Source: an uncultured Acidimicrobiia bacterium (GTDB taxonomy: Bacteria; Pseudomonadota; Gammaproteobacteria; GCA-001735895). Taken from it: 64,000 bases of DNA. A model generated the notes under the pieces. It ran no database searches, had not been told where the DNA came from, and saw only the letters and a program-made list of their open reading frames with translations. The stretch lies in the NCBI GenBank assembly GCA_964195315.1, contig CAXMOZ010000015.1, positions 31,995 through 95,994 on the forward strand, read 5' to 3'. The stretch's first letter is position 1. Each line of letters opens with the position of its first letter. Position numbers and translations under genes: made by a program. Of the stretch, positions 15,813 through 42,618 are shown piece after piece.

Positions 15813-16187
15813 TTAGGTAGGAACCCGATGTTCGACTAATTCACAGAGTAAGTTAGTGATTAAATCTGAGCTACCGACATGTGCCGTGGTATGAAATGCT
15901 ATCTGTGGATACTTTTCCTGTAACGGTTTGACTTCATTTGGAATGTCTCTCATGACATGGTGACCTGCACAGAGAAAATAAGGCATCAGGCAAACCTCGT
16001 TCGCGCCTTGCTGGATGCAACTTTCTATTGCTTCGGCAATCGATGGGGCCGTTAGTTCTAGAAAGGCAATTTCGACAATTGGATATTTTTTATCCAATGT
16101 TTTAGCGAGTTTATTGGCGAGCTGTTTAGCCTCATCATTTGATGATTGAAGTCGACTACCATGGACGATTAATATGATTGATTTCAT
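15813..16187 (-). CDS. CbiX-like (short sirohydrochlorin chelatase-type) protein
   Basis: 124-aa ORF. The N-terminus (MKSIILIVHGSR) and a downstream His (CAGHHVMRDIP) match the CbiX small-chelatase pattern. Confidence 0.55.
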   Translation of the reverse strand: MKSIILIVHGSRLQSSNDEAKQLANKLAKTLDKKYPIVEIAFLELTAPSIAEAIESCIQQGANEVCLMPYFLCAGHHVMRDIPNEVKPLQEKYPQIAFHTTAHVGSSDLITNLLCELVEHRVPT

Positions 16188-27350: not shown

Positions 27351-29720
27351 ATGAATAAAACCTTTATCCTAATCTGTGCTCTGTTACTGGCGGTGATAGC
27401 CGCTATCGGCTACCTGATGCATCACTATTCAGTGATGGACTTGGTCGATACATCGGCTATCGCCGAGATGATCGCAGGTCTGGGATGGCTTGCTATACCA
27501 GCTTTCATTACCTTTGGTGCTTTGTTCACATCGGTGGGTTTACCGCGACAATTGGTCGCTTTTATTGGTGGCTATGTCTTTGGTACGGCAGTCGGTGTGG
27601 CGCTTGGCACTGTGGCAGCTGCCCTGGGTGCGATACTGACATTTTATGCGGCGCGCTGCCTGGCTCGCCCATTTGTGCTGCGAAAATACCCAAAAATAGT
27701 TTCAAAAATAGATCATTTCATTGACGATAGATTGTTCCTCAAAATCCTCCTGATTCGTTTTCTACCGTTTGGGACTAATTTAGCGACCAATCTTGCAGCA
27801 GGTGCTGCAGCCACGCCTATTCGACCTTTTGCTTTGGCTTCATTGATTGGCTATATCCCTCAGATGACCATTTTTGCTATAAGTGGGCACGGTGTTCGAG
27901 TGGAGTCTGACACGCAGCTAATATTAGCTGCCTGCCTATTTTTGATATCGATAGTGATTGGAAGTTACCTTTACTATCAACATCATCAAGCAGCGACTGA
28001 GTCGAAACAGAGCAAATTTAAGTGGCGCTTGATTGGTGTCGTAGGCTTGGTGATGTTGTCATTATTATCACTAAGTTATTGGGCCTGGTTCGGCAATCAT
28101 TCTCCGCACCGAGTCTTTATCAATGCCAAGGTATTAACCGTTAATCAAAACAACGACATTGCCGAAGCTGTGTCGATCCGTTACGGAATGATCGAAGCGG
28201 TGGGCAGCAATGAATCGATTCAAGCGCTGATTGATAAAGATACACTGGTGAGTGATTTGGCTGGAAACACATTAATCCCCGGCTTTATTGATGCCCATAG
28301 TCATTTTCCGAGTTCCGGTTTAATGGCCGTTAGTGTTAACTTGAGGTCACCCCCCATTGGTGAGATTGGGTCAATCGAAGATATTCGTCAGGCCTTATTG
28401 GAGAAAATCGAAATAGCCGATACTGATGATTGGATAATCGGCTTCGGATACGATGATTCGTTATTGGTCGAGCAACGCCATCCAACTCGATTAGAGCTTG
28501 ATCAACTGTCGAGCGAGATACCAGTTTACCTTTGGCATAGTTCAGGCCACATGGGCGTTGTTAATAGTGCTGGGTTAGCAAAGCTGGGGTTTGATGAAAA
28601 CTCAGAAGCACCCTCCGCTGGTGTCATAGGTCGAGATGTTCAGAGTGGTCAATTGAACGGTTTGTTACAGGAGGCGGCGGCTCCGCCGTTGGGCAAATTA
28701 GCTGAAGATTTATCGCTACTGGCCTACTATCGAATTCTACAAACAGCCAGCGATGACTATAGTCAATGGGGCATTACCACCGCGAACAGCGGCGCAGTCA
28801 ACACGCCATTATTGAAAGCACTGTCATGGGCCGCTCGTTTGCGCTTGTTACCATTTCGTCTTGTCGTATCACCCAGGCATGATGTTTTAGGTGAAAAAAT
28901 TCTAGCGGGACAATTTTATCCAGCCGACTTCAATAACGACTGGTTTGAGGTGGGCGCTGTGAAACTATTTGCCGATGGTAGCCCGCAGGGTTATACGGCC
29001 TATTTGACCGAACCTTATTTTAAACCGCCACAGGGACAACCTGACTATCGAGGTTTTCCTGCGATAGAGCAAAGCGCGTTGATTGAAACAATCGCCAAGT
29101 ATCGCAATGCAGGCATTCAACTGGCCATTCATGGCAATGGTGATGCGGCAATCGATAATGTCATAGAGGCCATCAGGTTGTCGAGCCAGGTCAATCAGGA
29201 TGATGCACGAACGATTTTAGTTCATGCCCAAATGTCGCGTAAAGATCAACTGGATGACATGCGCGAGTTAGGTATAACGCCGAGCTTCTTCAATTCGCAT
29301 ACCTATTACTGGGGTGATGTTCATAGCAAAAATGCGATGGGGCCAGAGCGAGCAGCACGGATAAGCCCTGCATCTAGTGCGGAAAGCATAGGGCTACGTT
29401 ATAGCTTTCATAGCGACGCGCCAGTGACACCGATCAATCCGTTACAGCTAATTTGGAGTGGAGTTAACCGGCAAACGATAGAAGGTTATGTGCTTGGTGC
29501 TAATGAACGAGTATCAATCATGAGCGCATTACGAGCAGTGACAATCGATGCTGCCTGGCAGATTTTTCAGGAAAGTAACCGTGGTTCGCTCGAGGTGGGT
29601 AAACACGCTGACTTAGTGATTCTCGAAGGTGATTTGCTCAGTGACAAACAAAGAATCCGTCAACGACGAATTCTGGAAACTATCGTCGCTGGAGAAACTT
29701 CATTCAGCTATCAACCGTAG
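27351..29720 (+). CDS. Fusion protein: N-terminal DedA/TVP38 (SNARE-associated) membrane domain + C-terminal amidohydrolase-family (Amidohydro_3-like) metal-dependent hydrolase
   Basis: 789-aa ORF. Residues about 1-230 form a hydrophobic TVP38/DedA-like domain (…FLPFGTNLATNLAAGAAA…). From about residue 300 it carries the amidohydrolase metal-binding motif (PGFIDAHSHF), with distal His/Asp residues (HGNGD…, FHSDAP). Confidence 0.65.
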   Translation: MNKTFILICALLLAVIAAIGYLMHHYSVMDLVDTSAIAEMIAGLGWLAIPAFITFGALFTSVGLPRQLVAFIGGYVFGTAVGVALGTVAAALGAILTFYAARCLARPFVLRKYPKIVSKIDHFIDDRLFLKILLIRFLPFGTNLATNLAAGAAATPIRPFALASLIGYIPQMTIFAISGHGVRVESDTQLILAACLFLISIVIGSYLYYQHHQAATESKQSKFKWRLIGVVGLVMLSLLSLSYWAWFGNHSPHRVFINAKVLTVNQNNDIAEAVSIRYGMIEAVGSNESIQALIDKDTLVSDLAGNTLIPGFIDAHSHFPSSGLMAVSVNLRSPPIGEIGSIEDIRQALLEKIEIADTDDWIIGFGYDDSLLVEQRHPTRLELDQLSSEIPVYLWHSSGHMGVVNSAGLAKLGFDENSEAPSAGVIGRDVQSGQLNGLLQEAAAPPLGKLAEDLSLLAYYRILQTASDDYSQWGITTANSGAVNTPLLKALSWAARLRLLPFRLVVSPRHDVLGEKILAGQFYPADFNNDWFEVGAVKLFADGSPQGYTAYLTEPYFKPPQGQPDYRGFPAIEQSALIETIAKYRNAGIQLAIHGNGDAAIDNVIEAIRLSSQVNQDDARTILVHAQMSRKDQLDDMRELGITPSFFNSHTYYWGDVHSKNAMGPERAARISPASSAESIGLRYSFHSDAPVTPINPLQLIWSGVNRQTIEGYVLGANERVSIMSALRAVTIDAAWQIFQESNRGSLEVGKHADLVILEGDLLSDKQRIRQRRILETIVAGETSFSYQP

Positions 29721-29755
29721 GGCGTTATTAGCGAAGCGTAATACGCCGCATGCGG
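29715..29755. repeat. REP-like palindromic element, copy 3 of 3 (truncated variant)
   Basis: Sequence ccgtagggcgttattagcgaagcgtaatacgccgcatgcgg shares 'ccgtagggcg' and 'gcgt[at]at[ac]cgccgcatg' with copy 2. The TAG stop of the 789-aa gene lies inside it. Confidence 0.5.
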
Positions 29756-29806
29756 ACAAAACAGTAACGCAGGCCAATCGTGGAAAAGCGTATTTTCAGA
29801 TATGCC

Positions 29807-30280
29807 CTAGTTGTTGATGATCGTTTCCCAGGCCTTTTCCGATTCAACTTTGTATTCTTTAAAGTTGCCATCCATCCAGCGGTCACGCCCTCGTGCAGCG
29901 TAGAAGGTGTACAGCTGGTCTTCGAATATTTGCCAGTGAGTGCCGTCGGTCTTTATAAGGCCTTCACCCAGGCTCAGTGCATTGGCACAGTGACCATTGT
30001 AGGCTGGTGAATATTGTTCAGGATTGGCGGCAAATAAATCGCGGTCGGCTTCAGTTGTAAATAGCCAATTCGCACCTTTCCATTCCGCCTTCCAGGTCTT
30101 GCTACCTTTGAAGGCTTTATGCGGATTGTTGGCGACAACGCTATGATAAGCAACCGTGTCGTGGCCACCAATGGCGATATCACCAAAGTAACTTTTACTG
30201 ACAGGCTCGCTGGCATGAACAGAAAACAAAGCTTGCGCAAGAGCCAATAGACTCAACAGTAGTACTCTTTGAAAGGACAT
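29807..30280 (-). CDS. Secreted YHS-domain-like protein
   Basis: 157-aa ORF with a signal peptide (LLLSLLALAQALFSVHA). The GYDTVAY/…YNGHCA… pattern resembles YHS/TRASH-type domains. Confidence 0.45.
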   Translation of the reverse strand: MSFQRVLLLSLLALAQALFSVHASEPVSKSYFGDIAIGGHDTVAYHSVVANNPHKAFKGSKTWKAEWKGANWLFTTEADRDLFAANPEQYSPAYNGHCANALSLGEGLIKTDGTHWQIFEDQLYTFYAARGRDRWMDGNFKEYKVESEKAWETIINN

Positions 30281-30417
30281 TTGTTATCTCCGTAATTTTG
30301 TTCAGTACAAAGATAAGAATCGTATTCGAAGTTTTAGTTCAACCTGGAAATCCAGGCTATAGGTCGCGTTTCGAAAAGAATATTCTTGATCGTGTTATAA
30401 GCTTGTCAGTCATTTAA

Positions 30418-31521
30418 TTGTGTGATTTCAAATTGATTAAAAAAAGCGCTTATCTGAACATTGAACCGAAAGCTTACCACGGCGCAATCGACTTTGAAGA
30501 GATTTCAGCCCTTGGCCTAACACCAGATGAAATTGTCGATTTCAGTGTCAATAGCAACCCTTTTGGCCCTGCTTCGGCCATCGTCGAAGCGCTGCAGTCT
30601 GCCACTATATCGCGTTATCCGGATAAGGCCTGCCTGGGTTTACGTCAGGCATTAGGGCGTCAGTTTAACTTGTCTCTAGATCAAATTATGGTGGGCAATG
30701 GCACGGCCGAATTACTTTGGCTGATCGCTTTTGGCTTTATTGAAAAGACTGACAAAGTGGCAATTTTGGAACCGACATTTGGTGAGTACCGCCGAAACGC
30801 CCGATTAATGGGCGGTGAAGTTTGTCAATGGCGAGCAGTCGTAGAGAATAATTTTGAGTTGGATGAAGTTGCAATCGAACAGCTAATAGTCCAACAACGA
30901 CCCACTATTCTTCACTTGTGCAGCCCCAATAACCCAACCGGTTATCAAGTGTCAACCCAGCTACTAGAGCGATGGTCATTGTTGTCGCCAGAAACGCTAT
31001 TTGTCGTAGACGAGGCATATGCACAATTTCTACCTCAATATGAATCAGCCATGCACACCAGGTTGCCGAATGTTCTAGTATTGCGTTCGATGACAAAAGA
31101 CTACAGCCTGGCTGGTATTCGCCTGGGTTATGTGACCGGCCCAGTTGATTTGATTCGTGTACTTGAACAGCTTGCAATTCCATGGAGCGTGAATGAATTT
31201 GCGCAAATAGCAGGTATCGCAGCAATAGCAGCGCAGTCTGAGTATGAATGCATGTGGCGTGACCTACGCGATGAAGCGACTCGGTTTAAAGCGGGATTGA
31301 GGGCTTTAGGCTACAGTCCTGTTGAGTCACCCATGCACTATTTTTTAATGGAAGTAGGCGATGCTCGACATTTGCGTGAACGGCTATTGTCAGAGGGAAT
31401 TTTGGTGCGCCTTTGCGAGTCTTACTATTTACCAAACTACATTCGACTATCAACGCAGTTGCCTGAACAAAACCAACGCTTACTGGATTTACTAAAGGTC
31501 GAAAAATCATTCCAGGCGTAA
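30418..31521 (+). CDS. Threonine-phosphate decarboxylase-like PLP enzyme (CobD/CobC family, class II aminotransferase fold)
   Basis: 367-aa ORF. By-eye alignment to CobD: DFSVNSNPFGP (vs DFSANINPLG), CSPNNPTG, VLRSMTKDYSLAGIRLGY (PLP-Lys region), IPWSVNEFA. The start codon is uncertain because the track start is a TTG. Confidence 0.65.
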   Translation: MCDFKLIKKSAYLNIEPKAYHGAIDFEEISALGLTPDEIVDFSVNSNPFGPASAIVEALQSATISRYPDKACLGLRQALGRQFNLSLDQIMVGNGTAELLWLIAFGFIEKTDKVAILEPTFGEYRRNARLMGGEVCQWRAVVENNFELDEVAIEQLIVQQRPTILHLCSPNNPTGYQVSTQLLERWSLLSPETLFVVDEAYAQFLPQYESAMHTRLPNVLVLRSMTKDYSLAGIRLGYVTGPVDLIRVLEQLAIPWSVNEFAQIAGIAAIAAQSEYECMWRDLRDEATRFKAGLRALGYSPVESPMHYFLMEVGDARHLRERLLSEGILVRLCESYYLPNYIRLSTQLPEQNQRLLDLLKVEKSFQA

Positions 31522-32436
31522 ATTATCGAGGTAGATGACTCGGGATTGTTTGAGGTTACTTGCAAAAAAATTAATGTTGGCTATGTTTTTGATATCCATT
31601 TGCCGTGTCTTTGGCGCCAGAATGACATCGGAAAGATTGATAGCAATCGAGTTCCAGCCGGGTTGCAGGCGAGTTCTTTGCTGGAAACGGTCATTATATA
31701 AATAGTCACCTTGCTGATGTTGTTGGTCATGAATACGCGTAGTGATCAATAAGGGTGAATTGTCCGGTAGATAAATGCTAAACAGTACACGATCAAAGCC
31801 TTTCCAGTTGTTTGGCAAAAAGTTTAAGGACGCACCTGAATACTTGTCTGTAGTGAGCTCGATGCGAGCAGAATAACCCCCATGAGCAGTAAAGCTTTTA
31901 TCAAGTGTGATATTGCCATTAGAAGACCAGCGATTAAGCTCAAGTTTGCTTTCAAAATCTGCCAGTAGTGGAAAATTTTTTCTTGCCATTTGCTCATCGG
32001 CTAAAGTGACTAGCAGCGGATATAGCTGAATGCAAAGCAGTGCCGTGACGATTACTTTGAATTTAATGTCGAGTAATTGAGTGTTAGCCGATTTTGGACG
32101 ACGAAAAAATGCCAGGGCACTCAAGCCACCGAGTATGTTTCTGAGAATGTCTTGCCAGCCAGCTTGCCTGCCAATGAAAAACTGAATCGACTCGATGAAC
32201 ACACCGGCGACAAAACAAATGCCAACAATCCAGTAAAGTTGGTGAGCTTGTGTTAATTGCTGAAGAAACGATAAGTGCTTTAAAAGTAGAAATATCGCAA
32301 TCCCAAAAAAGGCGATATGACCTAAGTTCCACGCGATTCTAAATGATCGCGTGGGGACAATATCAGAACTGCCGGTAAAAAATAAAACGAATGAAAGAAA
32401 TAAAACTATGCCGAGTAGTAAGCTAGTTTTTCTCAT
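31507..32436 (-). CDS. VanZ-like membrane protein with a C-terminal extracytoplasmic domain of unknown function
   Basis: 309-aa ORF. The N-terminal roughly 150 aa has 4 TM helices typical of VanZ-like proteins. The C-terminal roughly 150 aa is soluble and beta-rich (…GWNSIAINLSD… NINFFASNLKQSRVIYLDNLRLE). Confidence 0.4.
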   Translation of the reverse strand: MRKTSLLLGIVLFLSFVLFFTGSSDIVPTRSFRIAWNLGHIAFFGIAIFLLLKHLSFLQQLTQAHQLYWIVGICFVAGVFIESIQFFIGRQAGWQDILRNILGGLSALAFFRRPKSANTQLLDIKFKVIVTALLCIQLYPLLVTLADEQMARKNFPLLADFESKLELNRWSSNGNITLDKSFTAHGGYSARIELTTDKYSGASLNFLPNNWKGFDRVLFSIYLPDNSPLLITTRIHDQQHQQGDYLYNDRFQQRTRLQPGWNSIAINLSDVILAPKTRQMDIKNIANINFFASNLKQSRVIYLDNLRLE

Positions 32437-32449
32437 TCAGAGTTACTCA

Positions 32450-32866
32450 TTAGCCTTCTAATTCATCGGTATCATACTGACCAGACACCTTACGACGAAT
32501 GTGTGACCACGACATACCGACCGCCAAAACACCGCTGAGAACGAACTCCACGACCCAAACTACGACCGAAGTATCGTCGAGCGCAAGAACACCCCATTCG
32601 ATCAGTAGCCAGATCAAGACAGCAAAAAAAGCTGCCGCGAGCACAGTGCCAATGGCGCCTAGTGACATCCAGGTAGCGCGTAGATACATAACCCAACCGA
32701 TCATCAGTAAAACGCCAGAACCTACTTTATATACCAGGGCAATATCTGAATTTAACCAATGTATCCAGGAATAGGTCGATGGGTTATAAGTGATCATCAC
32801 CAGAAATAAAGCGATAACAAATCTGATTAAGAAGCTGACGAGGGTGAAATTGTTCATATTTCTCAT
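32450..32866 (-). CDS. Hypothetical 4-TM membrane protein
   Basis: 138-aa hydrophobic ORF on the same strand, 13 bp downstream of the VanZ-like gene. Confidence 0.35.
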   Translation of the reverse strand: MRNMNNFTLVSFLIRFVIALFLVMITYNPSTYSWIHWLNSDIALVYKVGSGVLLMIGWVMYLRATWMSLGAIGTVLAAAFFAVLIWLLIEWGVLALDDTSVVVWVVEFVLSGVLAVGMSWSHIRRKVSGQYDTDELEG

Positions 32867-32986
32867 AGATATTGACCATCAATATTAGCCTTGTGAATTG
32901 GGCCCGAAGAGGCGATGTATAAATATAACAGGGAATACCTAGTCCGGAAAGTTGGTATTAGATCATACAGTTTTAAGCCCGTCGCA

Positions 32987-33796
32987 TTAGGTTTGGCACT
33001 TTGGACAGAAATAACTCGAGCGTTGGTTTTGCGTCATTTTTTTTATATTGGTATTGCATGCCATACAAGTACCTTTAATACCATATACCGAGAGTGATTG
33101 TGCAAAATAACCGGGCTTACCATCGACCTGGGTAAAGTCCTGAAGCGTTGTACCACCTTGTAAGATGGCAGCGCTTAAAGTGACCTTGATCTCCTTAACT
33201 AGTTTGTCGAGTCGCTTTTTACTGATGCTACCCGCTTTTCGGAATGGGTTGATGCCTGCTGAGAAGAGCGATTCGCAGGCGTAAATATTACCGACACCGG
33301 TGACATTGTGGCTATCCATAATGACTGACTTAATCGAACTGGTTTTGTTCAGGCATTTGGCTTTCAGGTGTTCGACATCGAAGCCATCGGATAAAGGCTC
33401 TGGCCCTAGGTTCTGAAGAAGGCGATGATGAAGTGGGTTGTCTTTGCAATAGAGTAAGGCGCCAAATCGCCTGGGATCTCGATACTTAAGTGACTGACCA
33501 GAGACTAATTGAATTTCGATATGTTCATGGCTTTGAGGTGGCGTATTAATTGGTTTAATTGCCATGCTGCCTGACATGCCAAGATGCCAAATCAAACTGC
33601 CCTGATCGAGTTGCATCAAAATGTATTTACCGCGTCTCGATACAGTTTGAATCAGACGACCTGCCATGTCGTTAACTTCCGGAGGTATAGGCCATCTAAG
33701 TTGATGATGTCTGACAATAAAGCGCTCGATCGTTTGGCCGCAAACGTGAGGTTCGATACCGCGCATGGTAGTTTCTACTTCGGGTAGTTCAGGCAT
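32987..33796 (-). CDS. mutM: Formamidopyrimidine-DNA glycosylase
   Basis: 269-aa ORF with an N-terminal MPELPEVE (catalytic Pro2/Glu3), an H2TH domain and a C-terminal zinc finger (CMACNTNI…CPKCQ). Confidence 0.9.
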   Translation of the reverse strand: MPELPEVETTMRGIEPHVCGQTIERFIVRHHQLRWPIPPEVNDMAGRLIQTVSRRGKYILMQLDQGSLIWHLGMSGSMAIKPINTPPQSHEHIEIQLVSGQSLKYRDPRRFGALLYCKDNPLHHRLLQNLGPEPLSDGFDVEHLKAKCLNKTSSIKSVIMDSHNVTGVGNIYACESLFSAGINPFRKAGSISKKRLDKLVKEIKVTLSAAILQGGTTLQDFTQVDGKPGYFAQSLSVYGIKGTCMACNTNIKKMTQNQRSSYFCPKCQT

Positions 33797-39675: not shown

Positions 39676-39855
39676 GACTTACTCCGTCTTAAAATAGCGA
39701 CATTGCTTTCGAGGGCGCGAACTCTACCAGAACAGACCTGTCGCTTCAACCCTTAAAGGATTTAAAAAGCTCTGTTTTTCGGTCGGTTGTGGATTCCTTT
39801 TCGCGAGGGGCCAATATAAGATGTGACTCACAATTTTACAAGCTGGATTAAGTGG

Positions 39856-40215
39856 ATGGACATCGTTTTTATACGAGAGTTACAGGTAGAGACAGTGATT
39901 GGTATTTACGACTGGGAACGCAAAGTCAGGCAGATGATTAGCCTTGATGTAGATATGGCGACGGATATCCATAAAGCGGCGACAACCGATAATATTGACG
40001 ATACATTGAGTTATAAAACCGTAGCGAAGCGTTTAATCGAGTTTGTCGAGCAAAGTGACTTCGAACTGGTTGAGGCGCTGGCTGAGAAAATTTGCGCGAT
40101 TATTATTGAAGAGTTCAAGGTGCCCTGGGTCAAGTTAACCTTGAGTAAACCGGGAGCTGTGCAGGGTTCTCTTGCCGTTGGTGTGATTATAGAGCGAGGT
40201 AAAAAGCCAGCATGA
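39856..40215 (+). CDS. folB: Dihydroneopterin aldolase
   Basis: Protein MDIVFIRELQVETVIGIYDWERK… is collinear with E. coli FolB (MDIVFIEQLSVITTIGVYDWEQ…). The start was moved from the track's 39823 to the ATG at 39856. Confidence 0.85.
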   Translation: MDIVFIRELQVETVIGIYDWERKVRQMISLDVDMATDIHKAATTDNIDDTLSYKTVAKRLIEFVEQSDFELVEALAEKICAIIIEEFKVPWVKLTLSKPGAVQGSLAVGVIIERGKKPA

Positions 40216-40700
40216 TCAGCGATGTTTATATTGGTGTCGGCAGTAATGTAGATCCCAGACAGAATATTAGGCGGGCTTTAGAAGCAATGAGCTCTGCCTT
40301 TGGGGGGCTTGAAAAGTCTCCGGTTTATCAGTCGGCTGCGGTTGGTTTTAATGGCGATGACTTTCTTAATCTAGTGGTTAAGTTTGAGACTAGCCTTGAT
40401 GTCGTCGCAGTGGTGGGCCAGCTTCGGGTGATTGAAGATGCGCAGGGTAGGGATCGTAGTCAGCCACGATTTTCGAAACGGCCTATCGATCTGGATATTC
40501 TGTTGTATGGTGATTTAAAAATAAATGAATCGGGTATTCAGATACCACGCGATGAAATTATTGAGTCGGCTTTTGTCCTGAAGCCACTGAGTGATCTATC
40601 TCCATATTTACTCCATCCATTGCAGAAACAGAGTTATCAGGAGCTTTGGCAAGCGATGGCGCCGGATGCGCCACAGCTTGACCTTATACAGATAGATTAG
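40212..40700 (+). CDS. folK: 2-amino-4-hydroxy-6-hydroxymethyldihydropteridine pyrophosphokinase (HPPK)
   Basis: 162-aa ORF with an HPPK N-terminus (VYIGVGSNVDPRQNIRRALEAM) and a 4-nt overlap with folB. Confidence 0.9.
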   Translation: MISDVYIGVGSNVDPRQNIRRALEAMSSAFGGLEKSPVYQSAAVGFNGDDFLNLVVKFETSLDVVAVVGQLRVIEDAQGRDRSQPRFSKRPIDLDILLYGDLKINESGIQIPRDEIIESAFVLKPLSDLSPYLLHPLQKQSYQELWQAMAPDAPQLDLIQID

Positions 40701-40707
40701 AGATGGC

Positions 40708-41760
40708 CTAGAGTATTGATTTAAGTGCGGTAATTAGCGCTCGGCATTCTTTGTCTGTTCCGATCGATATTCGCAGATAATTATCAATCCGTTTAGTTTT
40801 GAAATGGCGTACCAGAATTCCAAGTTTCCTTAATTCGGTATAAAGCGTTTGTGCCAGTGCACTTTGGTGCTCTGCAAGCAGGAAGTTGCTACTTGATGGC
40901 AATACCTTAAAGGCAAGTTCGACGAGTGCTTGGTTGAGCCAGTCTCTGCTCGCAATCACTTGTTCTCGGCATTGTTGAAAATAGGCTTCGTCCTCAATAG
41001 ATGCAATAGCGACGGCGCTCGCAATGCTATCGATCGGGTAGGAGTTGAAAGAGTTCTTGACTCTATTTAGACCCTCGATTAAATCAGCATTACCGAGGGC
41101 GTATCCCAAACGTAATCCAGCCAGGCTGCGTGATTTGGAAAAAGTTTGGATCACTAGCAAGTTAGGGTATTGATTAATTAAACGAATGGCAGATTCCGCG
41201 TCATAGTCGACATAAGCTTCGTCGATTATTACCACAGAATTGGTGTTTTTGAGTATGGTTTCTATTGCATCAAGGCCCAGCGCTATGCCAGTGGGGGCAT
41301 TTGGATTTGGGATGATGACACCGCCATTGGGCTGAGCGTATTGTTCCAGGGTGACGCAAAAATCATCATCTAAAGGGATCGTCTTGTAATCGATTTGATA
41401 TAAACCGCAATAGACGGGATAGAAGCTGTAGCTGATATCTGGAAATAGCAAGGGTTTGGACTGTTTGAAAAAAGCCTGAAAACTATGAGCTAGGACTTCG
41501 TCTGAACCGTTGCCGATAAAAACTTGATTGGTCTTAAGCCCATGATAGGACGCGAGGGAATTTGCCAGATCAGTCGACTCTGGGTCAGGGTAACGGCGTA
41601 GCGTGTCAATAGGAAATGATTCGACCACCTTTAATATAGATGGCGATGGTGGATACGGATTTTCATTCGTATTGAGTTTGATATATTGCATGTCCTGCGG
41701 TTGCTCGCCCGGCACATACGGGTTGAGCTGGTGCACGATGTCAGTCCAGTATTGGCTCAT
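40708..41760 (-). CDS. Histidinol-phosphate aminotransferase-family PLP enzyme (HisC-like)
   Basis: 350-aa ORF with the motifs NTNENPYPP, NPNAPTG and FSKSRSLAGLRLGY (PLP-Lys). It is convergent with folK, with a 7-bp gap. Confidence 0.7.
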   Translation of the reverse strand: MSQYWTDIVHQLNPYVPGEQPQDMQYIKLNTNENPYPPSPSILKVVESFPIDTLRRYPDPESTDLANSLASYHGLKTNQVFIGNGSDEVLAHSFQAFFKQSKPLLFPDISYSFYPVYCGLYQIDYKTIPLDDDFCVTLEQYAQPNGGVIIPNPNAPTGIALGLDAIETILKNTNSVVIIDEAYVDYDAESAIRLINQYPNLLVIQTFSKSRSLAGLRLGYALGNADLIEGLNRVKNSFNSYPIDSIASAVAIASIEDEAYFQQCREQVIASRDWLNQALVELAFKVLPSSSNFLLAEHQSALAQTLYTELRKLGILVRHFKTKRIDNYLRISIGTDKECRALITALKSIL

Positions 41761-41781
41761 AATCTTTAGATATGCCTAGTT

Positions 41782-42618
41782 TTAGTTGGTTAACAGACGG
41801 CCGCCATCAACAGTGATGACTTCGCCCGTAATATAATCATTGTTGATTAAAAATAATACTGTTTGAGTAATATTGTCTGGATTGCCTATTTTTTGTAATG
41901 GAATCTTATCCAGGATTGAATGTTGTTTGTCTTTACTCTGATTGGCTTCTGGCCAAAGTATAGCGCCAGGTGCGATACCGTTAATTCGTACTTCTGGCGC
42001 CATATCTGATGCGAGCGATTTTACTAGCATTTGATTGGCAGCCTTGGCGCTGCAATACAAACTATGATTTTTTAGTGGTATTGTCGCGTAAATATCGAGC
42101 AAATTAATAATACATCCATGGCTTTCTTTAAGGGCAGGGTGGCAAGCCTGTGATAAAAACAATGGTGCTTTCAAATTGCTGCCGAGCAAGTCGATCCAAT
42201 GTTGTTCGGTTATTGACCCTAAAGGTGTCGCATAAAAGCTGGATGCGTTGTTAATCAAAATATCCAGCTGGCCAAAAGCTTGGGACGATTTTTGAGCCAG
42301 CAATTCAATCTCGGTGATGTCCGACAGATCAGCTTGATAGCGTATCGCTGAACCGGGTCGATAGCCATTCAGTTCTGCTTCGAGGGCTTGCGCATTGCGG
42401 CTTGATGAGTGTCTCGTATTGCCATCCGGTTTACCTTGGGAATGGCGATGATGGATGATGAGATTTGCGCCATTTTGATGTAGAGTTCGCGCAATCTGCG
42501 CACCAATGCGGTTGGCTGAGCCAGTCACCAGGGCAGCCTTTCCAGTAAGCAGTTGTTTTTCAGGTGATATTTTTTCAGACAATATTTTTCCAAACCACAG
42601 AATTTTAAGAGAGAACAC
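41782..42618 (-). CDS. Short-chain dehydrogenase/reductase; pteridine/dihydromonapterin reductase-like (FolM-like)
   Basis: Rossmann motif TGSANRIGAQIA, an NNAS motif and a Y-x3-K site (YCSAKAA). Its context beside folB-folK fits a pterin reductase. The true start is probably downstream of the track's first codon. Confidence 0.55.
   Translation of the reverse strand: MFSLKILWFGKILSEKISPEKQLLTGKAALVTGSANRIGAQIARTLHQNGANLIIHHRHSQGKPDGNTRHSSSRNAQALEAELNGYRPGSAIRYQADLSDITEIELLAQKSSQAFGQLDILINNASSFYATPLGSITEQHWIDLLGSNLKAPLFLSQACHPALKESHGCIINLLDIYATIPLKNHSLYCSAKAANQMLVKSLASDMAPEVRINGIAPGAILWPEANQSKDKQHSILDKIPLQKIGNPDNITQTVLFLINNDYITGEVITVDGGRLLTN

Follow-up and report, generated by a model that had tools for sequence, protein, structure and literature searches.

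The closest described counterpart of the gene analysed here is CobD of S. enterica (STM0644; 1lc5; EC 4.1.1.81). Its gene also lies away from the main cob operon: cobD is STM0644 and the cobS of that operon is STM2017 (PMC8305020), and therefore the archetypal cobD is likewise unlinked from the main cob operon. The cobD genes of the Chloroflexota cob operons (P0023, P0028, P0031/L007) have cbiB, cobC and cobQ as overlapping or directly adjoining partners. L-Serine-O-phosphate decarboxylase of the SMUL_1544 type is a PLP decarboxylase from the same superfamily that supplies the cobamide linker. The histidinol-phosphate aminotransferases (HisC, TIGR01141; E. coli 1fg3, plant 8bj1) share both the superfamily and the fold, as well as the PLP-binding residues and two phosphate-binding arginines.

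The locus described here lies in a 64-kb window, by which we mean the whole stretch of DNA that was analysed, on a gammaproteobacterial chromosome. Here a solo cobD-type gene is found between unrelated genes and has no adjoining cobC. All four ORFs of the initial annotation, the 367-aa PLP enzyme and its three neighbours, are present (Table 1). Our proposed explanation, which we consider probable, is that the 367-aa protein is a functional CobD/CobC-type decarboxylase of the cobamide pathway, of Chloroflexota type, which was horizontally acquired and kept stand-alone, and that its neighbours are unrelated to it. We place it with CobD because of the best-scoring family model, the tree, the relatives in cob operons, the signature residues, the separate hisC and the dN/dS value.

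Table 1. Features of the 64-kb window discussed in the text, in order of position.
Feature	Positions	Strand	Details
Small CbiX-like chelatase	15813-16187	-	sole cob-type match in the window; 14 kb upstream of cobD
YHS-like secreted protein	29807-30280	-	157 aa; NF041384 96.5 bits (cut-off 70)
Divergent intergenic region, YHS gene/cobD	30281-30417		137 bp
cobD-type L-threonine-O-3-phosphate decarboxylase gene	30418-31521	+	367 aa; TTG start
VanZ-like 5-TM protein with C-terminal CBM11-like beta-sandwich	31507-32436	-	309 aa; Pfam VanZ
DUF6524 4-TM protein	32450-32866	-	138 aa; PF20134, E 2e-44
Bona fide hisC (histidinol-phosphate aminotransferase)	40708-41760	-	TIGR01141 304.3 bits (cut-off 276.55)

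The 367-aa protein is a fold-type I PLP enzyme and matches PF00155 (E 1e-46). Its top NCBIfam model is CobD (TIGR01140), with 252.2 bits against a cut-off of 290.55, and the second is HisC (TIGR01141), with 230.9 bits against a cut-off of 276.55, so that both scores lie below their cut-offs. The best PDB match is S. enterica CobD (1lc5; E 2e-46, 33% identity), which has the same fold and length, and residues 21-360 align with its residues 8-354. The likeness to CobD along the length of the enzyme, which had been noticed by eye, is thus borne out by the alignment. The PLP lysine K227 corresponds to K216 of the S. enterica enzyme and D198, N172 and R235 to D185, N157 and R224, whilst H21 of the His-Gly pair, R331 and R343 are equivalent to H8, R323 and R337. 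The CobD signature is present (N-terminal H-G, D-F-S-x-N-x-N-P, S-x-T-K-x-Y), and its D-F-S-x-N-x-N-P motif is common to both proteins. In the alignment, 62 of the 66 columns that are conserved in the cob-operon-type group and different in HisC are retained, including H21, G22, D41-F42-S43, N172, S224, T226, K227, R331 and R343. The roles of these residues, for example that of the imidazole-binding Asp of HisC, are presumably those described in the 1lc5 and HisC structure papers.

One alternative is that the protein is a diverged aminotransferase of the HisC family which acts on another substrate (e.g., an aromatic or other phospho-amino compound) and is not a decarboxylase. The HisC model scores just 21 bits less than the CobD model with both below their cut-offs, the databases label the relatives histidinol-phosphate aminotransferase, and the Tyr of D-E-A-[YF] is kept as in aminotransferases, where S. 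enterica CobD has Phe. Against this, the identity to the HisC proteins is 24–32%, Ala97 stands in place of the Asp of the HisC motif G-x-D-E and Ser46 in place of the Glu of N-E-N-P, and the CobD-type N-terminal H-G is present. In an NJ tree, whose scope was four non-CobD references and 20 gammaproteobacterial HisC sequences, the gammaproteobacterial clade, the Chloroflexota-type group and S. enterica CobD were split from the HisC/ArAT references and the gammaproteobacterial HisC in 200/200 bootstraps; a grouping with HisC, which the initial annotation had named as a refutation, was not seen. A true hisC is encoded 9 kb from cobD, and its relatives form a continuous series in which the named ones are Gamma-/Proteobacteria; the exceptions are two with flavobacterial labels, which seem to be mis-binned. 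This gene shows that the housekeeping HisC is a protein other than the 367-aa one. With the closest relatives lying in cob operons beside cbiB (see below), we regard the aminotransferase reading as very unlikely. Judged from its sequence, the protein is a CobD-type L-threonine-O-3-phosphate decarboxylase and not a HisC.

In the NJ tree the gammaproteobacterial clade is nested within the Chloroflexota-type group. The sister and next relatives of the 367-aa protein (P0023, P0028, P0031/L007), which are 54–59% identical to it, come from Chloroflexota, match the same NCBIfam profile, share nearly all conserved positions and are encoded inside cob operons, where cobD directly follows cbiB or precedes cobC-cobQ. 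The sister P0023 (59% identity) lies in an operon cbiB-cobD-cobC-cobQ with overlapping ORFs, P0028 (55%) in a cluster cobO-cbiA-cbiB-cobD-cobQ and L007 (54%) in cobD-cobC-cobQ. More distant members are found in the clusters cbiMNQO-cobD...cbiA-cobQ-cbiB-cobO (P0114, 47%) and cobD-cobQ-cbiB (Geobacter L008, 34%). Altogether, five of the six relatives outside the gammaproteobacterial clade whose context was examined are located in a cob cluster. The operon-embedded relatives score 242–280 bits with the CobD model and about 15–27 bits less with the HisC model, a pattern that matches the window protein. As they too fall below the TIGR01140 cut-off, this cut-off excludes the whole subfamily. The identity to S. 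enterica CobD is 33% for the window protein and 34–36% for the operon-embedded relatives, with no sign of accelerated change.

Based on these relationships, the gene was most likely acquired horizontally from a Chloroflexota-like donor. An ancestor of the gammaproteobacterial lineage may have taken up a Chloroflexota-type cobD, which after the transfer would have been kept as a stand-alone, single-gene transcription unit. The GC and GC3 of cobD do not differ from those of its neighbours; a recent transfer is rejected on these grounds, and if there was one it must be old. An intact copy of the gene is present in ~20 related gammaproteobacterial sequences and its median dN/dS is 0.11 (21 pairs), similar to that of housekeeping neighbours, which rules out a decaying pseudogene.

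The value of the case lies mostly in correction. The cobD protein is a further member of an already known family, whose subfamily is annotated as histidinol-phosphate aminotransferase in the databases and falls just below the curated CobD cut-off. Shelton et al. left cobD out of their criteria because most of the verified producers lack a gene annotated as such (PMC6461909). Owing to the HisC-type annotation and the score below the cut-off, surveys of B12 producers record too few cobD genes. The case would also illustrate how a single late cobamide gene moves from a Chloroflexota-like source into a gammaproteobacterial lineage. A new biological question would be raised only if whole genomes show a lineage entirely without cobamide genes.

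In the proposed role, the 367-aa enzyme would convert L-threonine-O-3-phosphate to (R)-1-amino-2-propanol O-2-phosphate, a linker that CbiB would attach to adenosylcobyric acid. In the organism, this linker might be used in cobamide synthesis or in the salvage of late corrinoid intermediates. Another option within the cobamide pathway is a decarboxylase that prefers L-serine-O-phosphate and yields ethanolamine phosphate, the reaction that SMUL_1544 carries out in norcobamide synthesis. The similarity of the window protein to 6oux, a 'threonine phosphate decarboxylase-like enzyme' that we take to be SMUL_1544, is remote and partial (E 4e-17, residues 63-310) in comparison with 1lc5 (E 2e-46), and members of the subfamily occur widely in ordinary cob operons. 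Such a substrate would have a precedent in Sulfurospirillum, cited in a passage of PMC6461909, and the alignment does not reveal substrate choice; still, we find this preference highly improbable. A preference for the threonine or the serine phosphate cannot be read from the 367-aa sequence itself.

Other cob genes were searched for in the window with Pfam and NCBIfam on 47 ORFs and by tblastn with CbiB, CobQ, CobO, CbiA and CobC references. By tblastn, cbiB, cobQ, cobO and cbiA were not found within the 64 kb. The flanks (~17 kb; left L052, right L135), which are other metagenome contigs carrying identical edge proteins and were examined by Pfam gene tables only, list no cob families. That no other cob genes are nearby, as the initial annotation had it, holds for the window and these flank tables with the exception of the CbiX-like chelatase. 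The entire window gave no Rfam match of any kind at gathering level, and hence no cobalamin riboswitch, and a permissive scan of 29600-33100 gave two matches, both at chance level. The lack of cbiB, cobQ, cobO and cbiA in the window, the lack of a riboswitch and the score below the TIGR01140 cut-off count against the proposed explanation. We assume that the source organism has a cobamide pathway; it most likely carries elsewhere in its genome a cob cluster without its own cobD, of which the 367-aa gene is the displaced member.

A different explanation, raised in the initial annotation, takes its clue from the adjacent envelope proteins: together with them, the solo CobD homolog would provide aminopropanol-phosphate or ethanolamine-phosphate that goes into something other than a cobamide, for example the decoration of a lipid or glycan head-group. 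The lack of cob genes in the window and flank tables and of a B12 riboswitch would fit this, and so would a cobD that was seemingly acquired horizontally without cob partners, a VanZ-like neighbour that bears a periplasmic CBM-like domain, and PMT_2/ArnT-like glycosyltransferases, which adjoin distant homologs of this neighbour in 10 of 76 loci. From the latter, the VanZ-like protein itself probably acts on the envelope. Yet cobD is not co-transcribed with its neighbours: based on the strand layout it is monocistronic and shares no transcription unit with them, as the YHS gene is divergent and the VanZ-like gene convergent, with 3' ends that overlap by 15 bp. Scans for promoters and terminators gave nothing that exceeds the shuffle expectation, and the same is true of promoter-like sites in the divergent intergenic region. 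The YHS gene is missing between VTT and cobD in four close relatives (L003, L004, L006 and L047) and present in three (L002, L042 and L131); YHS and the amidohydrolase are an indel among close relatives. Among 78 distant homologs of the VanZ-CBM-like gene, none of the 37 loci that extend 1.2 kb or more downstream has an adjoining CobD-like gene. In a sister lineage neither gene occurs at this position, and the linkage is therefore seen in one clade only. VanZ, DUF6524 and YHS are absent beside cobD in all six relatives examined outside the gammaproteobacterial clade. The CobD-type signature is, moreover, almost wholly retained, with no accelerated change, and we know of no aminopropanol-phosphate decoration of the envelope. 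Hence neither the envelope context as a clue to function nor the suggested co-variation of the neighbours with cobD held up, and we consider this explanation unlikely. Its more specific form, a horizontally acquired solo CobD long retained in a gammaproteobacterial lineage without a cobamide pathway to supply these phosphates for a non-cobamide molecule (e.g., an envelope or head-group modification), seems quite unlikely to us. In the explanation that we prefer, the position of cobD beside YHS, the VanZ-CBM-like gene and DUF6524 is a lineage-specific accident of synteny and not a functional module.

The neighbours themselves are much as they were first described. The secreted YHS-like protein has a signal-like N-terminal sequence by eye. 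The VanZ-like protein passes the Pfam threshold marginally (PF04892, 30.5 bits against a gathering value of 30.1; NF037970, 22.1 against 20) and no Pfam family matches its C-terminal 150 aa. The AF2 model (pLDDT 92) places five TM helices ahead of a beta-sandwich that spans residues 157-308, the extra beta-rich domain of about 150 aa that had been noticed, which resembles CBM11 (Foldseek 6r31/1v0a, E 2e-8) and, by positive-inside reasoning, would be periplasmic. The 4-TM neighbour, which has no NCBIfam match, is the DUF6524 protein; its gene shares the strand of the VanZ-like gene and precedes it by 13 bp, and four hydrophobic segments can be seen in the protein by eye.

The four ORFs of the initial annotation were all recovered with exactly the same coordinates (see table), and its description of the 367-aa PLP enzyme as a CobD homolog was borne out and sharpened. 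Among the NCBIfam models, CobD (TIGR01140, 252.2 bits) ranks above HisC (TIGR01141, 230.9 bits) while the protein reaches neither cut-off (290.55 and 276.55, respectively), and, among solved structures, S. enterica CobD (1lc5) matches best, its residues 8-354 aligning with 21-360 of the protein at E 2e-46, ahead of a plant HisC (E 3e-39). A separate gene in the window passes the HisC equivalog model with 304.3 bits; thus the 367-aa protein is not the housekeeping HisC. A neighbor-joining tree was built from an alignment of 138 sequences, which combined 19 members of the own clade and 95 distant hits with 20 HisC proteins from Gammaproteobacteria, three HisC/ArAT structures and S. enterica CobD. 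The own clade, the distant hits and S. enterica CobD were split from all HisC/ArAT sequences in 200 of 200 bootstraps, so the protein groups with CobD and not with HisC.

Features discussed in the text and their positions in the window
Feature	Position	Strand	Remarks
CbiX/CfbA-like class II chelatase, 124 aa	15813-16187	-	Sole exception to the absence of cob genes; below all cut-offs
VTT/DedA-like and Amidohydro_3 domains in one 789-aa ORF	27351-29720	+	
YHS-like protein gene	29807-30280	-	Above the cut-off of NF041384 ('YHS domain-containing (seleno)protein'), 96.5 vs 70 bits
367-aa class I/II aminotransferase-fold protein gene (cobD-type)	30418-31521	+	TTG start; PF00155, E 1e-46
309-aa VanZ-like protein gene	31507-32436	-	VanZ match marginal, 30.5 vs 30.1 bits
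138-aa DUF6524 protein gene	32450-32866	-	Clear DUF6524 match, E 2e-44
folB-folK, hisC and pteridine reductase genes	39823-42618		
hisC	40708-41760	-	
Canonical short VanZ protein, 131 aa	44720-45115	+	PF04892, 33 bits

The signature residues point the same way. The distant-hit group has 121 columns that are at least 85% conserved, 111 of which are found in the window's clade; 66 of the 121 differ from HisC, and the clade keeps 62 of these. The kept CobD-type positions (S. enterica numbering in brackets) include H21-G22 (His8-Gly9), N172 (N157), K227 (K216) and R331/R343 (R323/R337), as well as D41-F42-S43, S224, T226 and W256. The Asp of the HisC G-x-D-E motif, which we take to be the imidazole-binding Asp85 of E. 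coli, is Ala97 here and Thr86 in S. enterica CobD, and the Glu of the N-E-N-P motif is Ser46. The sequence comparisons support the assignment of the protein as a new, CobD-type member of a known enzyme family.

The homologs fall into two groups: a tight clade drawn from metagenomes and MAGs of uncultured Gammaproteobacteria, at 66-100% identity, and, beyond an identity gap, a second group with at most 59% identity, whose names, where given, are Chloroflexota, Anaerolineales or Caldilineaceae. The gammaproteobacterial clade is nested within this second group, with P0023 as its sister and the next clade out including P0031 (locus L007). Several of these relatives lie among cob genes. P0023 (59%) comes after two TP_methylase genes, chelatase subunits and cbiB and before a His_Phos_1 (CobC-type) phosphatase and cobQ, with overlapping start and stop codons; L007 (54%) is followed by a CobC-type phosphatase and cobQ; and the orders are cobO-cbiA-cbiB-[cobD-type gene]-cobQ in P0028 (55%), cbiM-N-Q-O-[cobD-type gene]...cbiA-cobQ-cbiB-cobO in P0114 (47%) and [cobD-type gene]-cobQ-cbiB in Geobacter (L008, 34%). 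P0069 (49%) stands outside a cob cluster, with a cbiG fusion 8 kb away, and some family members may have other partners. At its locus (L041, 8876-11131), the P0069 gene and the 3' end of a FemAB-like/Acetyltransf_6 gene overlap.

All ten relatives scored, in operons or not, resemble the window protein in giving 242-280 bits for CobD and ~15-27 bits less for HisC (NCBIfam), which indicates that the curated cut-off misses the whole subfamily. The simplest reading of the sequence data is that the gammaproteobacterial lineage acquired a Chloroflexota-type cobD by horizontal transfer. The gene equals its neighbors in GC and GC3 and the clade diverges down to 66% identity, so the transfer would be old. 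In contrast, the window's hisC has a continuous series of relatives, the named ones mostly Gamma- or Proteobacteria; two flavobacterial labels look like mis-binning. This hisC lies outside any his operon, with folB-folK on one side and a pteridine reductase gene on the other, an arrangement kept in sister lineages (L048, L050). In MAG records, contigs of the gamma lineage (L002; P0007, P0133, P0134) also go under Urechidicola, Chitinophagales, Flavobacteriales or Polaribacter. L002 is gammaproteobacterial in synteny despite its label, and the source assemblies thus seem to be mis-binned. The apparent cross-phylum acquisition and the systematic mis-annotation as HisC are mildly interesting.

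By analogy with CobD, the enzyme would convert L-threonine-O-3-phosphate to (R)-1-amino-2-propanol O-2-phosphate by PLP-dependent decarboxylation, and CbiB would then join this product to adenosylcobyric acid, forming adenosylcobinamide phosphate (pathway reviewed in PMC7242693). In this organism the step may belong to de novo cobamide synthesis or to the mere completion of late intermediates obtained by salvage. The statement that no other cob/cbi genes are nearby holds: no cob/cbi families were found among the scanned window ORFs, CbiB, CobQ, CobO, CbiA and CobC-type references had no tblastn match within the 64 kb, no cobalamin riboswitch was found, and the Pfam gene tables of the flanks, taken from other metagenome contigs with identical edge proteins (10 kb left, L052; ~7 kb right, L135), contain no cob families. 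The examined sequence is, by estimate, roughly 2% of a typical genome. The one exception is the small chelatase, whose best NCBIfam matches are sirohydrochlorin nickelo-/cobalto-chelatase models (70-71 bits) and which adjoins an aromatic amino acid transaminase gene. The chelatase is conserved in L006 and L047, and may point to an early-cobalt-insertion corrin pathway or, equally, to siroheme synthesis. Isolation of a cobD-type gene is not unusual in itself, since S. enterica cobD (STM0644) adjoins cobC (STM0643) apart from cobS of the main operon (STM2017; PMC8305020) and cbiB stands alone in the pfs-btuF operon of Vibrionales (PMC11837498). We regard a non-cobamide use of the enzyme, in a lineage without cob genes, as very improbable.

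The suggestion that the enzyme serves an envelope product together with its neighbors was not supported. The cobD-type gene is a single-gene unit, divergent from the YHS gene across a 137-bp spacer and convergent with the VanZ-like gene, their 3' ends overlapping by 15 bp. The order VTT > cobD < VanZ < DUF6524 < fpg < mipA is kept within the clade, which carries little information because the clade genomes are syntenic throughout. In a sister lineage, whose hisC is 69% identical, hisC...ABC...mipA-fpg is retained and followed by an FMN dehydrogenase, with no DUF6524, long VanZ or cobD at the corresponding site; at this site, the DUF6524, long-VanZ, cobD and VTT segment after fpg is specific to the window's clade. 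Among 80 VanZ-like loci retrieved, 78 were distant (33-44% identity): none of the 37 with at least 1.2 kb past the 3' end has an adjacent CobD-like gene, and no DUF6524 was detectable in the 57 that extend 600 nt or more upstream. The YHS gene is missing in four relatives. Hence, the proposed co-variation of these neighbors with the cobD-type gene was not seen. Selection on the gene (median dN/dS 0.11, range 0.10-0.22; pairwise NG86, seven clade members) is similar to that on MFS (0.10), MipA (0.09) and DUF6524 (0.08), the VanZ-like gene being higher (0.23). Synteny with sister-lineage locus L048 (17567-19542 against window 31507-33796) ends right after fpg. Immediately upstream of cobD, the VTT/amidohydrolase/YHS segment is a fusion and indel hotspot. 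In L042 (1830-4190), the VTT/DedA-like part (222 aa) and the Amidohydro_3 part (563 aa) are adjoining but separate genes, and L003, L004, L006 and L047 have the VTT gene alone, without amidohydrolase or YHS.

The extra extracytoplasmic beta-rich domain ascribed to the VanZ-like protein is seen in its AF2 model (46-sequence alignment, pLDDT 92, pTM 0.82) as a beta-sandwich at residues 157-308, following five TM helices; by the positive-inside rule it is probably periplasmic. This domain has no Pfam model. Foldseek matched CBM11 (6r31, 1v0a; E 2-3e-8, TM 0.64-0.66 on target), CBM-like domains of GH50 agarases and a complex I assembly-intermediate entry (7zkq). The same ~300-aa architecture occurs in 61 homolog clusters, some of them from Marinobacter and Desulfobulbaceae, and the family is present in many sediment metagenomes; the sole recurrent real neighbor at distant loci is a PMT_2/ArnT-like glycosyltransferase (10 of 76). 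Two Marinobacter records name the VanZ-CBM11-like protein 'succinyl-CoA synthetase subunit beta', an apparent misannotation. The second, short VanZ gene of the window lies between uppP/bacA and a CCA-adding enzyme gene, an arrangement kept in sister lineages (L048, L051).
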